Source: a phage. From it: DNA of 64,000 nt. The stretch lies in assembly GCA_017676145.1 (NCBI GenBank), contig GCA_017676145.1_3628.1. One strand, written 5' to 3'. The position numbers were made by a program, and so were the translations under genes. The notes under the pieces were generated by a model, which saw only the letters and a list, made by a program, of their open reading frames with translations, had not been told where the DNA came from and did no database searches. The first letter of the stretch is position 1. Each line of letters begins with the position of its first letter. This document shows, piece by piece, positions 970 through 57,215 of this stretch.

Positions 970-1248
970 ATGAGCTGCGAAAAATCTTTTTTCATCATCA
1001 TTTACGGCAAGGATAACTGCCCACATTGTGTAAGAGCAAAAGAATTTGCAGTCAGCAAAGGCATACCTTTCGTATACAAGACGCTAGGTGAGGGATACAC
1101 AAAAGAAGAGCTTATCGAGAAGTGTAGCCCATTTGTTCCCAGAACGTTGCCTCAGATCTTCTTGGAAAGCAACCTTGACAGTATCCACATAGGTGGTGCT
1201 GACGATTTCATCTCTTTTGTTAAGAATGGTTTTGGAGAGAAAAAGTGA
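970..1248 (+). CDS. glutaredoxin-like redoxin (NrdH/NrdC-like), 92 aa
   Basis: C-P-H-C active-site motif near N-terminus (YGKDNCPHCVRAK), size and fold pattern of glutaredoxin; stop overlaps nrdD start (GTGA). Confidence 0.7.
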   Translation: MSCEKSFFIIIYGKDNCPHCVRAKEFAVSKGIPFVYKTLGEGYTKEELIEKCSPFVPRTLPQIFLESNLDSIHIGGADDFISFVKNGFGEKK

Positions 1249-2105
1249 AAGTTGTAAAACGGGACGGTAGAGAAGAGTTTTATAACGGAATTAAGGTGAT
1301 CAAGGCGGCAGAGTCCGCCTTACTTGAGTCTGGACATACTGAAGAAGAAGCTTACCGGATTGCCTGTGCGGTTAATGAAGTTGTTGCCAACAATCTGCCA
1401 ACCGACCAGTGCACGATCTCTGTAAAAAATATCCATATCCTTGTTGAAGATGCTCTTATGGATATGGGTTTAAAATGTGCAGCCAGAGAATACATCCAGT
1501 ATAGACAGACAAGAGATAATAACAGAGAGGCAGGTGGAAAACTGCTTGCAGATATTAGTGGCTTCTTGGATCGTACTTGTGATGAATTTACAAAAGAAAA
1601 CGCAAATAAGCCTACTAATCATGTACACACTCATCGTGACCTGCTTGCAGGCATCCTTAGCAAACACCTTGCATCAACACAGATCCTGCCAGATCGTGTC
1701 TCAGAAGAGCACAACAAGGGCTTCATCCATGTGCATGATCTTGACTACTTGATCAGCCCGTTAACAAACTGTTGTTTGGTGAATTATCCGGATATGCTGG
1801 AAAACGGATTCAACATTGGCAACGCCCATGTCAGTAAGCCGAAGTCAATAGGGGTTGCAACAACAATCCTTAGCCAAATCTCTAGTGCAGTAGCTAGTGC
1901 TCAATATGGTGGTCAGACCATGAGCCATATTGATCATTATCTGGCACAGTATGCTGAAGCAACCTACGAGAAGAACCTTAAATTTTGTCAGGAACATTGG
2001 TTGCCAGATGCTGAGACTGTTGCAATGCAAATGACAGATAAAGACGTGTTTGATAGTATGCAAACTTTGCTCTACCAAATCAATACGTTAACTTCTGTCA
2101 ACGGT
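1245..2105 (+). CDS. nrdD: anaerobic ribonucleoside-triphosphate reductase NrdD, exon 1 (ATP-cone and N-terminal half)
   Basis: N-terminal ATP-cone (MKVVKRDGREEFYNGIKV). ORF stops at 2106-2108 exactly where the NrdD-like sequence is interrupted; C-terminal half resumes in the same frame at 2904. Confidence 0.8.
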
Positions 2106-2903
2106 TAACAAACTGGCCGTTGTAAAACTCTCCTAACCTCATAAGAGGGGTCGGTAAATCCGGCTAACGGGGAACGCTAAGGCGAAAGCTATGCCAATCC
2201 CGTGACTAGTTCTTACAGGAGTTGGAACGGTTGTAACGACTAACGAAAGGCAGAGATGCTTGACAAACATTTCTGAACCGAGTAGTGTAGGGGTTAGTTG
2301 AAATACTAACTTCGAAAGGGAGAGACTCTATGAAAAAGATCATTCTTAATGGTGAAGAATCGAACTACGTGATTGATGAGGTGGGAAACGTATACGGAAA
2401 ACGTGGAATGCTGCACCCCATATTGTGGGGAGGTTATGGAAAAGGTAACAAGCATGTTAAACGCCGCTATATGTATTCTTTCAACCACAAAGGTAAGAAG
2501 ATTCGAATCCAAACTTCAAGGGTTGTTGCCTTGTATTGTTTGCCAGATGTCCCAGAAGACCCTGAAAACTGGGAAGTGAATCATAAAGATGGCAATACAT
2601 TGAATGATCATCCGTCTAACCTAGAGTGGGTTTTGCCGGAAGATAATAAGAGACATGCTTTCCGAACAGGGCTTTGTCCAGGCAAGTGCTACAGGAAAGT
2701 GCAGGCATACCAAGGGAAAACCTTGGTGGGTGAATATCCTTCACTCTATGCCTGTGCAAAAGCCTTAAATTTGAACGTAGGGAACGTCCATAGGGCTATC
2801 GAAGGAAATGCCGAAGGTAAGCATCTCACAATAAAGGGTTATTATCTTATTGAAGTAGAGTAAGAGATAGTCTGGCCCTGTGGAAACACAGGGGTGGAGA
2901 CAG
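2106..2903 (+). mobile_element. group I self-splicing intron in nrdD carrying an HNH homing endonuclease ORF
   Basis: 798 nt (multiple of 3) between two NrdD halves. Exon 1 ends in U (caacggt) that can pair with downstream ccgttg (P1/IGS-like). Intron ends in G. GACUA / UAGUC P7-like elements flank the ORF. Predicted junction gives ...TSVNG/QTPFITL. Confidence 0.6.
2330..2863 (+). CDS. intron-encoded HNH homing endonuclease, 177 aa
   Basis: HNH motif VNHKDGNTLNDHPSNLEWV; located entirely inside the nrdD intervening sequence; ATG preceded by purine-rich SD. Confidence 0.75.
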   Translation: MKKIILNGEESNYVIDEVGNVYGKRGMLHPILWGGYGKGNKHVKRRYMYSFNHKGKKIRIQTSRVVALYCLPDVPEDPENWEVNHKDGNTLNDHPSNLEWVLPEDNKRHAFRTGLCPGKCYRKVQAYQGKTLVGEYPSLYACAKALNLNVGNVHRAIEGNAEGKHLTIKGYYLIEVE

Positions 2904-4163
2904 CAGACTCCATTCATCACATTAAGTTTAGGGCTAGATACCTCGGTCTTTGGTAGAATGATTACCAAAAACTACTTGAAAGTTCACAAAATGGGTCTTG
3001 GTGAAGAACGGATCACACCTGTGTTCCCTAAAGTGCTGTTCTTCTTAGAGGAGGGTGTCAACATGAACCCTGGGGATCCTAACTACGATTTGAAACGATT
3101 GGCTCTAGAATGTTCTGCAGAGCGGATTTATCCTGACTTTGTTTCTGTTCCGCTGAATCGTAAAGTGACAGGTTCAACAGACGGCAAAGTAACAAGCATG
3201 GGATGTAGGTCGTTCCTTGGCAAATATGTTACACCGGAGGGTGATGAAAAATACCTTGGCAGATTCAACTTGGGTGTTGTTAGCCTTAACCTACCAATGA
3301 TTGCGGCAAAAGCTAAGACGGAAGGTATTGATTTCTTTGCAGTTCTTGACGAATACTTGGATCTTGCATACGAGGCTCACCTTGTAAGGGTTAACCGTCT
3401 AAAAGGAACAAAGGCAGGGCAGAACCCTATCATGTGGTGTGAAGGAGCTCTTGCTCGCCTGGATCCTGAAGAGAGTATCGATAAACTCTTCTATGACGGG
3501 TACGCTTCCATCAGTATTGGGTATATTGGTGTGTATGAAACCTGTCAGATTTTGGGCAGAGAGGGTGACAAGGCTTTAGCTCTTGGAATCCTTCAGCACA
3601 TGAAAGATGCTTGTGAGCGATACAAGAAGGAAAGTGGACTAGCATTTAGCTTGTACGGCACACCTTCTGAGAGTTTATGCTATAAAGCTGCAACCTGTCT
3701 GGATCGTGAATACCCAGAAGTGTTGAAGCACGAGCATGAATACCTCACCAACAGTTTCCATCAGCCAGTATGGATCAATAGCTCGCCTTTTGATAAGTGG
3801 AAGTATGAGGAAGGTTTTGCTATGATCTCCTCTGGTGGTAACATTGGGTACATAGAGACACCAAATCTGAAAAACAACTTAGATGCTTTGGAAGCTCTTG
3901 TTGATTTCGGATATAAACACATTATGTATTTTGGTATTAACCAGCCTGTGGATAAATGTCTTAAGTGTGGATTCTCTGGTGAGTTCAGTGCAACAGCTAA
4001 AGGCTTTGTATGCCCAGAGTGTGGAAACCATGAAGAGGGAACGATCAGTGTGATTAGACGTGTATCCGGGTATCTATCCAGTCCAAACTCCCGTCCTTAC
4101 AATAAAGGTAAGCAAGCGGAGGTTATAGAACGGGTTAAGCACTACGGAAGTTGTGGTTGCTGA
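2904..4163 (+). CDS. nrdD: anaerobic ribonucleoside-triphosphate reductase NrdD, exon 2 (C-terminal half with glycyl-radical domain)
   Basis: C-terminal zinc ribbon (CLKCG...CPECG) and glycyl-radical motif RVSGYL; in frame with exon 1 after removal of 2106-2903. Confidence 0.8.
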   Translation, partial: QTPFITLSLGLDTSVFGRMITKNYLKVHKMGLGEERITPVFPKVLFFLEEGVNMNPGDPNYDLKRLALECSAERIYPDFVSVPLNRKVTGSTDGKVTSMGCRSFLGKYVTPEGDEKYLGRFNLGVVSLNLPMIAAKAKTEGIDFFAVLDEYLDLAYEAHLVRVNRLKGTKAGQNPIMWCEGALARLDPEESIDKLFYDGYASISIGYIGVYETCQILGREGDKALALGILQHMKDACERYKKESGLAFSLYGTPSESLCYKAATCLDREYPEVLKHEHEYLTNSFHQPVWINSSPFDKWKYEEGFAMISSGGNIGYIETPNLKNNLDALEALVDFGYKHIMYFGINQPVDKCLKCGFSGEFSATAKGFVCPECGNHEEGTISVIRRVSGYLSSPNSRPYNKGKQAEVIERVKHYGSCGC

Positions 4164-4166
4164 TAC

Positions 4167-4196
4167 TTGACAAAAGTCACAAGGATGTGGCATATT
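4167..4196 (+). promoter_or_regulatory. sigma70-like promoter (TTGACA, about 17-18 nt spacer, CATATT) with conserved CACAAGGATGTGGCAT box
   Basis: TTGACA at about 4167; spacer contains a box that recurs near 11118-11140. Confidence 0.4.
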
Positions 4197-4816: not shown

Positions 4817-4846
4817 TTGACAAAGTCTTGTTAAGTTGGTTATAAT
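4817..4846 (+). promoter_or_regulatory. strong sigma70-like promoter (TTGACA-17-TATAAT)
   Basis: ttgacaaagtcttgttaagttggttataat immediately downstream of nrdG stop. Confidence 0.55.
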
Positions 4847-41952: not shown

Positions 41953-42609
41953 TCAGCTTACCGAGAAATTCTGCTCGGACATACTCTTCGGGGACCTCTT
42001 CCCTTTGTTTTTACACCTTGCGGTTTTAGGTATCCCAGTGTACCATGCCCAACTCCTCCCAGTCAAGATATTGGAAATGGTTATTTGATTAACACCGAAA
42101 AGATCTGCTATAGCTTGCTGTGACATACCTGTTTTGGAAAGCTTTAATATTTCGTCAACATCTCTCTCTTTAAGTTTTGCACAGTATGATCTTTCCCCTC
42201 TTGTTTTACAGTAATCGTAGTCCACATCTTGGGCATTTTTTGAAGGCGAGGCCCATTCAAGGTTATCAGCAGCATTGTTTAGACGATTATGGTCTTTATG
42301 ATTAATCGGCACATAATCCAGCCCTGCTGCCTTACACTCTTCTACAAGCTCTTTTGAGGGAGGCTCTAGAAAGGTCTCGGCAATTAACCTGTGAAGCAAT
42401 TCCGATCTTCCATCCACATTTACTTGAATGTAACCGCTACTGTCTACGCTACCTTTTAAAATCCTGTCAGGGACAGCTTTGAAAGTAACTTTACCTGTTT
42501 GGTTACTGTACTTTCTCAGGTAAGACAGCCTTTTAATCCTTCCTTTGCTGCTAACTTCATAGTCGGCCTCCTTGCCAACCAGTTTTCTCCATTCCTCCAT
42601 AGCAAACAT
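41953..42609 (-). CDS. free-standing HNH homing endonuclease (NUMOD4-like N-terminus, HNH core, C-terminal HTH)
   Basis: EEWRKLVGKEADYEVSSKGRIKR (NUMOD4-like), INHKDHNRLNNAADNLEW (HNH), GMSQQAIADLFGVNQITISNIL (HTH); located 12 nt downstream of DNA polymerase exon 2. Confidence 0.75.
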   Translation of the reverse strand: MFAMEEWRKLVGKEADYEVSSKGRIKRLSYLRKYSNQTGKVTFKAVPDRILKGSVDSSGYIQVNVDGRSELLHRLIAETFLEPPSKELVEECKAAGLDYVPINHKDHNRLNNAADNLEWASPSKNAQDVDYDYCKTRGERSYCAKLKERDVDEILKLSKTGMSQQAIADLFGVNQITISNILTGRSWAWYTGIPKTARCKNKGKRSPKSMSEQNFSVS

Positions 42610-42620
42610 CTCTTATCAGA

Positions 42621-42974
42621 TCAATGGCAACTACCCCAATTAGCCCCACACAAGTATTCACCTGTGATCTGGAACGGAACGCCCATCATTTTAGAAGCTT
42701 GCCAGAAGCAATGTACCACCATTTCGCCCACAGGGCTCCAGATAAGTTCAAGCTTTCCGTCCTCGTTCAAGATAGGATCGTATACCGTATTTCCATCCTT
42801 GTCAACCACTTCGTTTCCGTCCTCATCCTTGCGTGCCTTTTTGTACTTATGACCGTCGAACACATGAAGTTTAGCCTCTTGCTGGGCTTTAAATGTTTCC
42901 AGCTCTTCAATTGTGTCGAAGGTGTATACAGTTTTATACTTAGGTGTGTCAGGTACTTGAAGTTGGTACTCATC
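42621..42974 (-). CDS. DNA polymerase (family A), exon 2 (C-terminal 117 aa)
   Basis: Begins DEYQLQV (completing motif C HDE with H from exon 1) and ends ...GANWGSCH, matching the conserved C-terminal His of T7-type polymerases. Confidence 0.6.
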   Translation of the reverse strand, partial: DEYQLQVPDTPKYKTVYTFDTIEELETFKAQQEAKLHVFDGHKYKKARKDEDGNEVVDKDGNTVYDPILNEDGKLELIWSPVGEMVVHCFWQASKMMGVPFQITGEYLCGANWGSCH

Positions 42975-43302
42975 CAATAGTTCAGGTAGGTCGTTAAGCT
43001 ACCCCGCACCATTACGTGCATAGCCATACAGTTTCCCGTATGGATCGGACTATCTCACTGCCTTGTCACCAAGGCACCTCTCATTTCGACCGCACTTGCT
43101 GGCCTACTCTACTCGCTTCTTCACCCCAAACTGTGTTGGAGCTATGCTTTCGATAGTCTCTGAACGTTCATCCTCTCGGATGCTTCGCTGCGGATTAGCA
43201 TATTGAGCTTTTACCATGGTTAGGTGTAAAAGTCAACTTAGCCTTCCCGTCAATTAAAGAGGTTTTCGACGTGCATCACTGCACGAAGCCACAATGTTAT
43301 TT
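42975..43302 (-). mobile_element. ORF-less group I intron interrupting DNA polymerase motif C
   Basis: 328 nt between H and DE codons of motif C; exon 1 ends in U, intron ends in G; P7-like pairing AGACUAU / AUAGUC present; in-frame stop 1 codon into intron. Confidence 0.55.
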
Positions 43303-45726
43303 ATGGTAATAAATAATCCGACGAACACCCTCATCATACCATCCACGCTTCACCAGCTGGTGGTGCATGAGGATTCCCACCAAGTCGCACAACGAGGCAC
43401 CGCCATTTTGCTGATATGCATTAAGCAAAGAGTGTTTAGAGCGGGTCCAAATGGCATGACCGTCAAAAGAGTAGATGAATTTCTTACCTGTTGCTTCCCA
43501 GAATTTCTCCAGATCCTCTTTACGCCCCTTAAGACCTGGGTTGGCATCCCAGAGAGCATCGATTACTCTCTGCCCCAGCTCTGGAGAGATATCCAGCATA
43601 TCTGCAACTTTATCTTTTTGTGCCCCGTACATAACCCCATACGTGACAGGCTTACCATCGTTACGAGACACCTCCCTGCCTGCTACTTTTGTATATGCCT
43701 CAGCATTGTTTTGGTGCGCATCTCCGTTACTTACAACATCATAGTACAGACCGTTGTCGAACTCAAAGGCACCCCAAGCCCCGATAAGCTGCTCTAAGTT
43801 GGACCCGTCAATACCGATCTCAAAGTATCCGGGAGGAACACCCCACAGACTACGCATCTCTTTACCCATAACCACTTTAGGAGATGGTTTAGGCATGTTT
43901 GCACAAATGCTGTGTTTCTGTCTGGAAGTGTTTGTTAATCCAGAACTTTTAGCAGGAAGCTTATGGTCAATCTTCAAACGTGGATGATTAAGAAGACCAG
44001 TATCAACCTTATCCTCCTTGATTGGATCAAGGACCGATCTACGGTTTCGCAAGGATAACCACAAGACGATATCTTTAGCCATCTCTCCGTTCAACTTTTC
44101 AAGATTCGGACATAGGTGTCCAAACGTATCTTTCAGTTGCGGAGAAGTAATAAGCGCTCTGGCTTTTCTACGTATCTTCCCAAACACTTCCTTTTTAATC
44201 CTTTCTGAGTTAGGGAAGCTTCGGAACTTGTGCACGGTTGTCTGAAACTTAGCATCAGTTTTGTTCCAGAAGTTTATAATTAGGTCACAATACTCTGACT
44301 CTAAAAGCTCGTCCATATATGCATATACTCGTGCATCAACATCAGCATCAGGCAGAGCTTTCTTCTTGCTGTCTTTAGTTACATCCTTAGTTCTCCACAT
44401 TGTTGGGAGCCAACCAGCACTAATCAGGTATCGCTTAATGTCGTCCTGATTGCTGATTTTCATAGGTATCTTGCAGTCAGGCATTCGCTTCTGCTGTAGG
44501 TCACTTATTGCCTGATCCATTAGCTCTTTAGGTAAAGGGTGTGGTGTAGAAGTTCCTTTGATATACCCCCTCAAGAAATCAGCCATCTTATCTGGGTCTT
44601 TACAGCCCATCTCTTCACACCATTTTATCCCCATTTTGCTGACATCCCCTGCAGAGGTAAATGCTCGCTTAGGAGGGGCTTTGAACTCTAAAGCGCTCAT
44701 GTCCACAGGATAGCCAAGCTTGTCTTTTAACCATTTCCAACCATTATTGGAGATTGTCCCATCCTGGTTAAACGGCTTTTCAGGGAACTTAGGCCGCTGA
44801 GACATTGATAACTCTTTTAAAGGAAGTTGTGGTTCAACACGATCAGCGATCTCTTTCATCCACGCATCGCAGCGGTCACGTAAAGCAATAGCCCCATCTA
44901 TGTCGAAATACACACCCTGTCGAGCCTGCAGCTCCATCAGGAAATGCTGCAGCATGCCTCGGCGTAATGCATTCTTCCAGGTAATCTTCTTGAATCCTTT
45001 AGGCTTCTCTTTGGCAGGGTCATACATAAAGTTCTGCATGTCAGATTTGCCGTAGAATACACCTTTTGATTCCGCTACCAACTCTTTCCAGAGCAACTCC
45101 TGGATGATAACGTCCTCGAACACACGATCCACATATTTCCACAGTGGAAGCTCACGCCAGTCATCGATTTGAACTTTCTGGTTACCAAGGGCATAGCCCC
45201 ATGCCATAAGGCCATGAGGCCCAACAGGTTGCATTTTCTTGGTAACTGGATTGAATACTGCGTCCGGACAACCTTTTGGCAAAGGGCGGTCAGGCCACAA
45301 GATTCGGCTCATAGCTAACGTATCAAACAGATTAACCTGGTGGTCGTTGATAGTTCCCATGCATTTAGGGTCACGGAACATATCAAAATGAATACCAGAT
45401 AATCTCTCCATCAGCATAAAGTCATAACTGTAGCAGTTATGGCAGTTCAAAGCTGTTGGTGACCAGTCGGAATTGCCTGTAAGCCAACCTTCCAACTCCG
45501 AAAAATCTGCTATGCGGACTTCAAAATCTTTATAAAGAGTTTTCTTTGCTAGAATAAAGTTCTTAGCCTTCTCTACATCCTCTTCAGAGTAGTGTGTGCG
45601 GTCATTTAGAGGAAGGAACAGCATAAAACGGTTCTTATTCAGCTCTTTAAACAAACCGCAGTGATAATAAAGATCTGGATCTTCCAGCAAGCCCGAGGCC
45701 TCCAGATCGAAAGACCACATACTCAT
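43303..45726 (-). CDS. DNA polymerase (family A, T7-like, with 3'-5' exonuclease domain), exon 1
   Basis: Exo I motif FDLEASG; motif A-like GIDGSNLEQ; motif B RNDGKPVTYGVMYGAQ; ORF terminates right after ...IIYYH, immediately before motif C acidic residues. Confidence 0.8.
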
Positions 45727-56946: not shown

Positions 56947-57215
56947 TAGTAAAAGTCCTCTACTTGTGTGTAAGTGTTTTCAAAGTTTTCCAAAACAGAC
57001 ATCACATCGGATCTGTCAATATCATACGCAACTCTCCAGCCATATGCAACCCTTTCTGCTGTTGCCTCTTCTGGAGCTAGTCGTCTGCTGGCATGAAAGA
57101 GTGTTGGAGTACACTTTCTTGCTTGCCCTCTAACTTTCCCATAATAATATCTGTGAATATCTTTGTCAAAATTTAATTCTTTTTCTGCACGAAGTTCGTA
57201 CTGCTGGTATAACAT
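56946..57215 (-). CDS. hypothetical protein (89 aa)
   Basis: Track ORF; start overlaps upstream stop. Confidence 0.45.
   Translation of the reverse strand: MLYQQYELRAEKELNFDKDIHRYYYGKVRGQARKCTPTLFHASRRLAPEEATAERVAYGWRVAYDIDRSDVMSVLENFENTYTQVEDFY

Follow-up and report, generated by a model that had tools for sequence, protein, structure and literature searches.

A td-like group I intron with an HNH endonuclease reading frame probably interrupts nrdD of an rV5-like coliphage

In the DNA of an rV5-like coliphage (Vequintavirus), the class III ribonucleotide reductase gene nrdD, 98.7% identical to that of phage FV3, is broken at 2106..2903, after the Gly codon and before the Gln codon of the conserved motif NGQTPF. 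Does the phage carry a split or disabled reductase gene, or is the interruption removed before NrdD is made? We analysed the locus within a 64-kb stretch of phage DNA (the window), to which all positions refer; every feature described below lies on its plus strand. We conclude that 2106..2903 is very probably a group I intron that splices itself out and is mobile; it falls in subgroup IA, and its core resembles the one in T4 td. The intron is already known, in that GenBank records of relatives annotate it through a joined CDS, and it is a standard phage element.

The two halves of nrdD share one reading frame

Exon 1 (1245..2105) starts at a GTG, encodes the ATP-cone and the N-terminal part of the NrdD catalytic domain and ends in ...SVNG, with the stop codon of its open reading frame (ORF), TAA, at 2106–2108. 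Exon 2 (2904..4163) opens with QTPF... and encodes the active-site Cys, the Zn ribbon and the glycyl-radical domain. Pfam matches place the ATP-cone at residues 1–91 and positions 1–154 of the NRDD profile in exon 1, and NRDD positions 156–562 plus Gly_radical in exon 2, so no part of NrdD is missing or duplicated. Because the gap measures 798 nt (266 × 3), the two halves share one frame, as the initial annotation had claimed. Cutting out exactly these 798 nt restores ...SVNG|QTPF... in a frame of 706 codons from the GTG at 1245, which carries all the hallmarks of a class III NrdD (ATP-cone, catalytic domain, Cys, Zn ribbon and glycyl-radical motif).

Exon 1 can be aligned both with T4 NrdD and with the full-length NrdD 9D3X. 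The initial annotation had predicted the junction ...SVNG-QTPF... and proposed an alignment of the joined protein with NrdD; in that alignment the protein is continuous across the junction for both references. It matches T4 NrdD (1H78, E 2e-167) with no gap at NG|QTPF and with the NGQTPF motif conserved, and 9D3X (E 1e-163) over the full length, again continuous at NG|QTPF. Exon 2 has neither an ATG nor a Shine–Dalgarno sequence at its start, and the sole in-frame start is GTG 2880, which lies inside the P9 hairpin described below; no plausible start for separate translation of exon 2 is left. We rejected independent translation of the two NrdD halves on this ground.

Intronless alleles fix both boundaries

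In the intron (2106..2903, 798 nt), the first three bases are an in-frame UAA and the last is a terminal G (ωG) at 2903, the final G that had been noted at the outset. The predicted ligated exon junction reads ...GTCAACGGT|CAGACTCCA..., and the uninterrupted site in nrdD of phages rV5 and EPFV3-03/2025 reads ...AACGGGCAAACT..., that is, AACGGG|CAAACT exactly at the predicted junction. This base-exact match indicates that the resemblance is not due to chance. Together with a 257-nt, ORF-less form of the intron found at the same site in 14 relatives, the intronless alleles fix the boundaries independently. Their Gly-Gln-Thr sequence also rules out G2906 as an alternative 3′ splice site.

Across 300 nt, EPFV3-03/2025 and the joined window exons differ at two positions (99.3% identity), −1 and +3 relative to the insertion site. 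Position −1 is G in intronless alleles and T in intron-bearing ones; position +3 is G only in ORF-carrying alleles and A in both intronless and ORF-less alleles. The ORF-less allele shows a cluster of synonymous flank changes, and the amino acids around the insertion site are identical in all ten alleles compared.

A complete group I core can be drawn

Every helix of the core (P3 and P4–P9, with the P3/P7 pseudoknot) could be placed. P1 (2099..2122) pairs the exon sequence CAACGGU (2099–2105) with the internal guide GCCGUUG (2116–2122); its 7 bp include a U2105–G2116 wobble at the 5′ splice site and enclose a 10-nt loop, UAACAAACUG. The adjoining guide bases CUG (2113..2115) can form a 3-bp P10 with CAG (2904–2906), the first three bases of exon 2. 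P3 joins CUCUCC (2128..2133) to GGAGAG (2319..2324), the latter doubling as the Shine–Dalgarno sequence of the ORF. Two small hairpins (2137..2164) stand between P3 and J3/4, namely CCUC-AUAA-GAGG at 2137–2148 and GUCGG-UAAAU-CCGGC at 2150–2164; P2 is absent from the intron as drawn by helix placement over 2106..2903. The same two-hairpin layout is found in about a dozen td-like introns of viral contigs.

Helix placement and the minimum-free-energy (MFE) fold both give the P4–P6 domain (2167..2232), with P4 ACGGGG/UCCCGU (2167–2172/2198–2203), P5/P5a with a GAAA loop (2176–2194), P6 GACU/GGUU (2204–2207/2229–2232) and P6a (2209–2228), as well as P7.1 CAGAGAUG/CAUUUCUG (2251–2275) and P7.2 GGUUAGU/ACUAACU (2292–2311). 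P7.1 and P7.2 are extra hairpins typical of subgroup IA. P7, the helix with the guanosine-binding site of group I introns, is formed by GACUA (2238..2242) and UAGUC (2868..2872), the latter preceded by J8/7 AAGAGA, and both strands match the Rfam consensus AGACUA...AUAGUCU. P8 pairs ACUCUAU (2325..2331) with GUAGAGU (2855–2861) and encloses the whole ORF: the 5′ strand contains the start codon, and the 3′ strand overlaps the stop codon. The P9 hairpin, CCCUGUG-GAAA-CACAGGG, occupies 2876..2893. The initial annotation had read the gap as a group I intron from a P1-like pairing of the exon 1 end and from GACUA/UAGUC elements flanking the ORF; both elements keep their place, the P1 pairing including its wobble, and the reading is now supported by a complete secondary structure that an unconstrained fold recovers. 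With the ORF deleted, the unconstrained MFE fold contained 73 of the 73 proposed nested pairs (z = −6.5 against shuffles); the 257-nt ORF-less form folded with z = −3.9.

Several helices are maintained by compensatory changes, a comparison that draws on two closely related intron forms and on helices placed by hand in a few more distant introns. Between the ORF-carrying and ORF-less forms such changes occur in P1 (first pair C–G in the window, A–U in the ORF-less form), P3, the second of the extra hairpins between P3 and P4, P6a (several) and P9 (third pair C–G in the window, U–A in the ORF-less form). P7.1, P7.2 and P8 are unrelated in sequence between the two forms, which nonetheless have equivalent hairpins there. 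The P3 equivalent covaries in related introns, with six distinct sequence pairs and all six positions complementary in seven of eight cases. P7 is invariant (GACUA/UAGUC), and covariation therefore gives no test of it. Pairs were read from explicit helix tables, from which rows with strands mislocated by string search were set aside (P5a, and P7.1 and P8 in some introns); a MAFFT alignment of five introns was unreliable in its 3′ half and was not used. Relative to the phage phita32, the 224-nt non-coding 5′ part of the intron differs at three positions, which are unpaired or change A–U to G–U.

An alternative layout, that of the Rfam alignment, would make the two hairpins after P1 into P2 and P2.1 and put P3 just before the UAA-P4 segment; it leaves that P3 with no complementary 3′ strand. 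We dropped it because the segment after J7.2/3 pairs with CUCUCC at 2128–2133 and covaries with it in related introns. On its predicted P7.1 and P7.2 and its td-like P4 and J8/7, we assign the intron to subgroup IA. It receives no finer IA1, IA2 or IA3 label because it departs from the td layout by its missing P2 and its two hairpins after P3.

The Rfam group I model scores the intron below threshold

The initial annotation had also proposed a covariance-model scan, and its outcome was divided. A local scan with RF00028 detected the window intron (25.1 bits, E 6.6e-4), and the whole ORF-less intron scored slightly higher (29.8 bits, E 2.2e-4); both values lie below the gathering score of 50, which is an operational threshold and not a defining property of group I introns. 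The local window hit covers the 3′ end of the intron, where J8/7, P7′ and P9 are aligned with high posterior probability. The scan of the full 64-kb window gave no hit to the nrdD intron at E ≤ 0.01. RF00028 pushes the second extra hairpin into P3, and it misplaces P3 because the real P3 5′ strand lies 34–37 nt further upstream. The low score probably reflects two traits of this intron class, the absence of P2 and a pair of extra hairpins separating P3 from P4. The class also shares a P1 loop fixed at 10 nt (UAAYAWAAUG) followed by GGCC. The Rfam group I model can thus miss real phage introns of this architecture. In the same scan of the window, RF00028 did pick up another intron, a canonical one, which lies in the DNA polymerase gene.

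The intron ORF encodes a predicted I-HmuI-like endonuclease

The complete HNH ORF that had been recognized in the gap (2330..2863, 177 amino acids, within the P8 loop) is present and is predicted to encode an I-HmuI-like homing endonuclease. Pfam HNH_3 matched at 29.4 bits (cut-off 24.8), PHROG 59 (HNH endonuclease) at 2e-26 and I-HmuI (PDB 1U3E) by phmmer at E 5e-4 over residues 8–160, near full length; the Pfam I-HmuI_NUMOD-like profile reached 18.4 bits, below its cut-off of 27. The HNH motif is intact, with NHKDGN...SNLEW...EDNKRH aligned to DHKDGN...TNLRW...KINVEN of I-HmuI. Codon differences from the phita32 ORF number 19 synonymous and 2 non-synonymous, and a second ORF comparison gave 15:2, a pattern that shows purifying selection on the ORF.

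The Shine–Dalgarno sequence GGAG (2319–2322) lies 7 nt ahead of the AUG. Within the P7.1 loop, a promoter-like TTGACA-17 nt-TAGTGT (2260–2288), weak and recognized by eye, can be discerned; a consensus promoter scan made no call at 2260–2288, and the −10 hexamer is poor. The window contains 14 TTGACAAA sites against 4.9 expected, few of them with a usable −10 hexamer. An internal promoter in the intron is at most a weak possibility.

Intron and ORF are polymorphic among close relatives

We surveyed 121 related records, of which 28 have the intron with its ORF and 14 the intron without it, all at the same site. About 80 are intronless there, a figure derived by subtracting the 14 ORF-less records from the 94 whose coverage of the joined junction is 80% or more. 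Presence or absence of both the intron and the ORF therefore varies among close relatives. The HNH protein is 98–100% identical across the intron-carrying records listed, and at 95% identity or more it was found in 28 records, only at this nrdD site. Phages that are otherwise near-identical thus provide a natural homing series of intronless, ORF-less and ORF-carrying alleles, in which one pair differs in the flanks only at −1 and +3. In some relatives, a second intron lies at the active-site cysteine codon.

A proposed route for splicing and homing

We infer catalysis by the intron, its homing and a link between translation and folding as follows; the splicing steps follow general knowledge of group I introns. 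The last bases of exon 1 and the internal guide would form P1 in the pre-mRNA, with U2105 in a wobble pair with G2116. An exogenous guanosine bound at P7 would attack after U2105, and the guide would then line up exon 2 through P10 (CUG/CAG). The freed 3′-OH of exon 1 could next attack after the terminal G2903, joining the exons into the 706-codon nrdD. The UAA at the intron start would keep ribosomes out of the ribozyme. During mixed infection, the HNH enzyme may cut or nick intronless nrdD, by analogy with I-HmuI, and repair would copy the intron into the cut allele (homing).

The P3 3′ strand serves as the ribosome-binding site of the ORF, and P8 contains the start codon; an RNA folded as a ribozyme should therefore not be translated into endonuclease, and vice versa. 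Unfolded RNA or a separate transcript may instead be the template for the endonuclease. A broader idea, which we put forward as speculative and rather improbable, is that introns lacking P2, or having P2, with two hairpins between P3 and J3/4 constitute an under-described IA variant that RF00028 systematically misses, and that the ribosome-binding site in P3 and the start codon in P8, with a possible promoter in the P7.1 loop, could make splicing and expression exclusive. A literature search for a name for the hairpins between P3 and P4 (P3.1, P3.2) returned nothing relevant.

Alternatives to a mobile, splicing intron

The insertion might not splice at all, being either the remains of an intron or what amounts to a free-standing endonuclease cassette, with NrdD made as two polypeptides that assemble after translation or with nrdD inactivated. 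Several GenBank records, including that of FV3, annotate two separate NrdD CDSs and an HNH gene, the Rfam score is below threshold, and the report on Pectobacterium phage CB7 describes one unspliced HNH-containing insertion and cites the NrdA of Aeromonas phage Aeh1, which is split by mobE (PMC7344957). We nevertheless consider a non-splicing insertion very improbable. A second polypeptide would have to start without an ATG or Shine–Dalgarno sequence, since the annotated GTG 2880 falls within the P9 stem, and the break lies inside an invariant motif around which both exons encode the same residues as intronless alleles. Decay fits poorly with ribozyme helices kept through compensatory changes and with a non-coding intron part that is more conserved than the synonymous sites of the ORF, and an endonuclease cassette leaves unexplained why an ORF-less version persists at the same site.

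Loss of mobility in an intron that still splices seems to us somewhat less improbable, but still unlikely. The HNH protein would then be inactive or recruited to another role (a maturase, or a nuclease in competition between phages), and the patchy distribution would come from recombination among co-infecting phages, not homing. T4 I-TevIII provides a precedent for a defective intron HNH protein (database annotation), and the window and EPFV3-03/2025 differ over a very short converted tract (−1, +3), which would suit ordinary recombination or precise loss. Against this, the ORF is full length, keeps its HNH catalytic motif and aligns with I-HmuI over 8–160; synonymous changes exceed non-synonymous ones by 19:2 and 15:2; and the near-identical endonuclease (at least 95%) of the 28 records is confined to the nrdD site. 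Removal at the protein level, as by an intein, would be in keeping with how common inteins are in phage ribonucleotide reductase genes (PMC3653736), but we discount it entirely: an in-frame UAA (2106–2108) opens the gap, the HNH ORF (2330), with a start and a stop codon to itself, is out of the nrdD frame (1245), and Pfam found no intein domains. A mobile, self-splicing group I intron remains our preferred reading.

Relation to known introns

The closest counterparts are in BASEL phages. Bas54 MaxBurger (MZ501093), WalterGehring and EmilHeitz have the same intron at the same site, about 97% identical, and Bas56 AlexBoehm (MZ501048) has the ORF-less form there. The BASEL records join nrdD from two pieces into one CDS, annotate a ‘putative homing endonuclease’ within it and differ in nothing material from the window; their intron boundaries were set by comparative genomics (PMC8594841). 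The paper on rV5 describes terminase introns only. Our literature search found no paper that describes this intron for FV3 or rV5-like phages, and likewise no structure and no RNA, splicing or cleavage data on it.

The T4 nrdD (sunY) intron, of group IA and with I-TevII, interrupts the same host gene with the same kind of element and also begins with an in-frame UAA. Both nrdD introns lie in a conserved stretch just before or at NGQTPF, but the T4 site, after the first base of the Tyr180 codon, is 32 nt upstream of the window site, which corresponds to T4 Gly190|Gln191. The T4 intron is longer (1033 nt against 798 nt) and its endonuclease is of the GIY-YIG type, whereas that of the window is HNH.

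In its core, the window intron is very similar to the T4 td intron (with I-TevI): J8/7-P7′ contains GAUAGUC in both, and the P4 motif CGGGGAAC...CAAUCCCGUG is common to the window intron and T4-like td introns. The td intron also shares P7.1, GUA, P7.2 and the GAAAC before the P3 3′ strand. In td the order is the usual P1-P2-P3-P4; the window intron lacks P2 and, between P3 and P4, contains two hairpins. The td ORF, which lies in P6a, encodes a GIY-YIG protein, unlike the HNH protein of the window.

For the endonuclease, the nearest comparison is the DNA-polymerase intron of Bacillus phage SPO1, whose ORF also lies in P8 and whose enzyme, I-HmuI, nicks one strand. I-HmuI (1U3E) belongs to the same endonuclease family and is of similar length (174 against 177 amino acids), and its layout is an N-terminal DNA-binding sheet, the HNH motif and a C-terminal NUMOD-like helix-turn-helix; the window protein may have such a helix-turn-helix after its HNH motif, although the Pfam score there is below the cut-off. 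The SPO1 intron is in another gene and another host, and the protein similarity is weak (phmmer E 5e-4).

Splicing of HNH introns has been demonstrated by RT-PCR and cDNA sequencing in CB7 (Vequintavirinae, Certrevirus; PMC7344957). CB7 is of the same subfamily as the window phage and carries HNH introns in replication and nucleotide-metabolism genes. They lie in terL, the DNA polymerase gene, nrdA and nrdB, and CB7 nrdD is uninterrupted.

The finding leaves general knowledge of group I introns and homing endonucleases unchanged, and its value is for annotation: in the window genome, FV3 and many relatives, nrdD is best given as one joined CDS, not as two fragments and an HNH gene. Several records also lose the ATP-cone through a later ATG start.

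A split nrdD and its joined product

Over nrdD, the window has 98.7% identity to Escherichia phage FV3 and 94–96% identity to many other Vequintavirus (rV5-like) coliphages. Locally, nrdB, for the class I small subunit, and glutaredoxin come before nrdD, and a small ORF and the activase gene nrdG come after it. The initial annotation had placed the two halves of NrdD in the same frame, with the joined sequence reading SVNG-QTPF, and both points held. Exon 1 starts with GTG (1245) and ends at 2105, directly followed by TAA (2106–2108), and the second piece starts at 2904; the 798-nt gap (2106..2903) keeps both pieces in one frame. Pfam detected the ATP-cone and NRDD profile positions 1–154 in exon 1, and NRDD positions 156–562 and Gly_radical in exon 2, so the pieces abut with no loss and no repeat. 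The joined protein (706 aa) aligned continuously with T4 NrdD (1H78, E 2e-167), gapless across the junction, where the T4 counterpart reads SSNGQTPF, and full-length with the ATP-cone-bearing NrdD 9D3X. With translation from GTG 1245, a start that overlaps the stop codon of glutaredoxin, the ATP-cone aligns from residue 1. In the records of several relatives (BASEL phages, phita32, 241Ecol014PP), nrdD starts at an internal ATG equivalent to window 1458, which removes the ATP-cone from the annotated gene.

A 300-nt joined-exon query matched uninterrupted nrdD in a single piece, with 99.3% identity in EPFV3-03/2025 and 92–94% in rV5 and many others. At the sequence level, these matches are independent proof of the predicted intron boundaries and of the junction. 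Intronless alleles read AACGGG/CAAACT, whereas the window reads AACGGT and CAGACT on either side of the intron. Over the 300 nt, the window differs from EPFV3 only at exon positions −1 (G to T) and +3 (A to G) relative to the insertion point, both synonymous. Each change creates a pairing that the ribozyme is predicted to require: −1 T provides the uridine in the P1 U·G pair, and +3 G completes the third P10 pair.

Architecture of the predicted ribozyme

A whole-window Rfam scan at E ≤ 0.01 did not report the nrdD intron. The Rfam group I model (RF00028, gathering score 50 bits) scored 25.1 bits (E 6.6e-4) at the intron 3′ end and 29.8 bits (E 2.2e-4) over the entire ORF-less intron found at the same site in relatives; since these scores are below threshold, the structure was worked out directly. 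The core is td-like. The P1-like exon pairing noticed initially corresponds to P1 (2099–2105 with 2116–2122), with its U·G pair at the splice site, and P10 pairs 2113–2115 with 2904–2906. P3 (2128–2133 with 2319–2324), two small hairpins (2137–2148 and 2150–2164), J3/4 (UAA), P4 (2167–2172 with 2198–2203), P5/P5a (2176–2194) and P6/P6a (2204–2232) precede P7, whose strands (2238–2242 and 2868–2872) are the P7-like elements reported to flank the ORF. P7.1 (2251–2275), P7.2 (2292–2311), P8 (2325–2331 with 2855–2861; the ORF enclosed within), P9 (2876–2893, with a GAAA loop) and the expected terminal G (2903) complete the intron. When the ORF was swapped for a tetraloop, the unconstrained minimum-free-energy fold contained all 73 nested pairs proposed, with an energy 6.5 s.d. 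below shuffled sequences; the ORF-less intron fold was 3.9 s.d. below dinucleotide shuffles.

Compensatory differences between the ORF-carrying and ORF-less forms occur in P1 (C-G versus A-U), P3 (C-G versus G-C), the second extra hairpin (G-C versus A-U), P9 (C-G versus U-A) and, several times, P6a. The 224-nt non-coding 5′ part of the intron differs from that of phita32 by three substitutions, which fall at unpaired positions or turn an A-U pair into G·U. The P3 5′ strand is unusually placed, directly after P1 and 34–42 nt 5′ of P4. Among related introns, retrieved from viral contigs by a shared P4 motif, seven of eight sequences contain a perfect 6-bp complement of this strand, comprising six different sequence pairs, immediately 3′ of a td-like GAAAN/GAAGC segment and just 5′ of P8; these comparisons support the predicted placement. 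This layout probably accounts for the poor Rfam score, as the model takes the second hairpin for P3.

Two hairpins between the P3 5′ strand and J3/4, with or without P2, recur in a class of td-like group I introns (viral contigs L017, L018, L020, L026, L034, L040, L042, L052, L055 and L061, and window 2128–2167). In many members the P1 loop is a fixed 10-mer (UAAYAWAAUG) and GGCC comes next; RF00028 misaligns P3 in introns of this class. A literature search found no name for the layout.

The HNH endonuclease and allele types

The complete HNH endonuclease ORF proposed for the gap was confirmed at 2330..2863 (177 aa). It matches Pfam HNH_3 above cut-off, an I-HmuI NUMOD-like domain below cut-off and PHROG 59 (HNH endonuclease), and its sole solved-structure match is I-HmuI of SPO1, whose type it shares (1U3E, E 5e-4, residues 8–160). 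Copies at least 95% identical were found at the nrdD site only; the other relatives listed were all less than 50% identical. The Shine–Dalgarno sequence GGAG (2319–2322) is part of the P3 3′ strand and the AUG lies within the P8 5′ strand, so the endonuclease should not be translated while the ribozyme is folded, and ribosomes translating the ORF should in turn open the ribozyme structure; each would exclude the other. A TTGACA-17 nt-TAGTGT site in the P7.1 loop has a poor −10 hexamer and was not called by a promoter consensus scan; speculatively, transcription from this site could supply the ORF with a separate RNA lacking the P3 5′ strand.

Among 121 related records, 28 carry the 797–798-nt intron with the ORF, 14 carry a 257-nt ORF-less intron at the same site, and about 80 are intronless (derived as the 94 records spanning the joined junction minus the 14 ORF-less ones). 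Simple ORF insertion or deletion does not link the two intron forms (window 2243–2867 versus 1506–1585 of L002, a sequence with the ORF-less form). Identity between them is about 86% over the P1–P7 stretch, and likewise between J8/7 and the 3′ end, whereas the module of P7.1, P7.2, the P3 3′ strand and P8 is unrelated in sequence, although both forms fold the same set of hairpins there. This pattern, with a matching compensatory change in the P3 5′ strand, suggests that two related introns recombined. In the ORF-less alleles, synonymous exon changes also cluster between about −42 and +12, and this cluster resembles a tract co-converted from a more distantly related donor.

Group I splicing and homing by I-HmuI-type enzymes are established mechanisms, and the fitting sequence features lead us to propose that this intron would follow the standard splicing pathway and spread by endonuclease-driven homing. 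Boundaries, helices, covariation and ORF family together support the original reading of a group I intron with an HNH homing endonuclease, the activity of which is predicted, and we consider it very probable that the intron is functional. A split gene that does not splice, as in Aeh1 NrdA, is unlikely: exon 2 lacks a start signal, the break interrupts an invariant motif, and structural constraint acts on the ribozyme. The in-frame stop codon rules out an intein, as does the ORF reading frame, which differs from that of nrdD. That the intron splices but its endonuclease is dead is less probable, given the intact NHKDGN...N...N catalytic motif and the purifying selection on the ORF, which has no internal stops and synonymous to non-synonymous codon differences of 19:2 from phita32 and 15:2 from MaxBurger.

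Known systems, other introns and neighbouring features

The T4 nrdD intron occupies the same gene at a different site and carries the GIY-YIG enzyme I-TevII. In the reconstructed T4 junction, it interrupts the Tyr180 codon after its first base, 32 nt 5′ of the T4 counterpart of the window site (between Gly190 and Gln191). In GenBank, nrdD of the BASEL-collection phages MaxBurger (with ORF) and AlexBoehm (without ORF) is a two-piece joined CDS, whereas FV3 and many others are annotated with two NrdD fragments. The BASEL collection used comparative genomics to set intron boundaries (PMC8594841), and in CB7, a related subfamily member, HNH introns in terL, the DNA polymerase gene, nrdA and nrdB splice (PMC7344957). 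A literature search found no description of the nrdD intron structure and no splicing test. As the element is of a well-known kind and this instance is already publicly annotated, its interest is low; what modest interest it has lies in its distinct insertion site, a three-allele natural series with minimal flank conversion and an architecture missed by the Rfam model.

A second group I intron lies on the minus strand at 43312..~43001 (3′ end approximate), with an RF00028 match well above threshold (43025..43312, 75.2 bits, E 2.8e-17). It has no ORF and is preceded by an 809-aa ORF (43297..45726, minus strand) with a Pfam DNA_pol_A match below threshold (27.8 bits, cut-off 34.3); a 118-aa ORF (42621..42977) and a NUMOD4, HNH_3 and HTH endonuclease ORF (41953..42609) follow. 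Separately, an additional nrdD intron containing another HNH ORF is present in some relatives, namely phita32 (~2468–3217), 241Ecol014PP, JEP1 and 'Campylobacter phage C2'. Its site, between window 3203 and 3204 and empty in the window, separates the Gly and Cys codons of SMG/CRSF directly 5′ of the active-site cysteine. This intron has a canonical td-like layout and ends in ...AACAUAAUG; divergent exon sequence just 3′ of it suggests a co-conversion tract.

Some 19–23 MG0656xx records titled 'Campylobacter phage' (host Campylobacter jejuni) are 93–95% identical to E. coli Vequintavirus across nrdD, and their host labels look doubtful on this comparison. Strong sigma-70-like promoters of the form TTGACAAA-N17/18-TATAAT-like occur at 4167–4196, 4817–4846 and 57140–57169 (minus strand), including in the intergenic gaps 3′ of nrdD and 3′ of nrdG; TTGACAAA is enriched in the window (14 sites observed, 4.9 expected).
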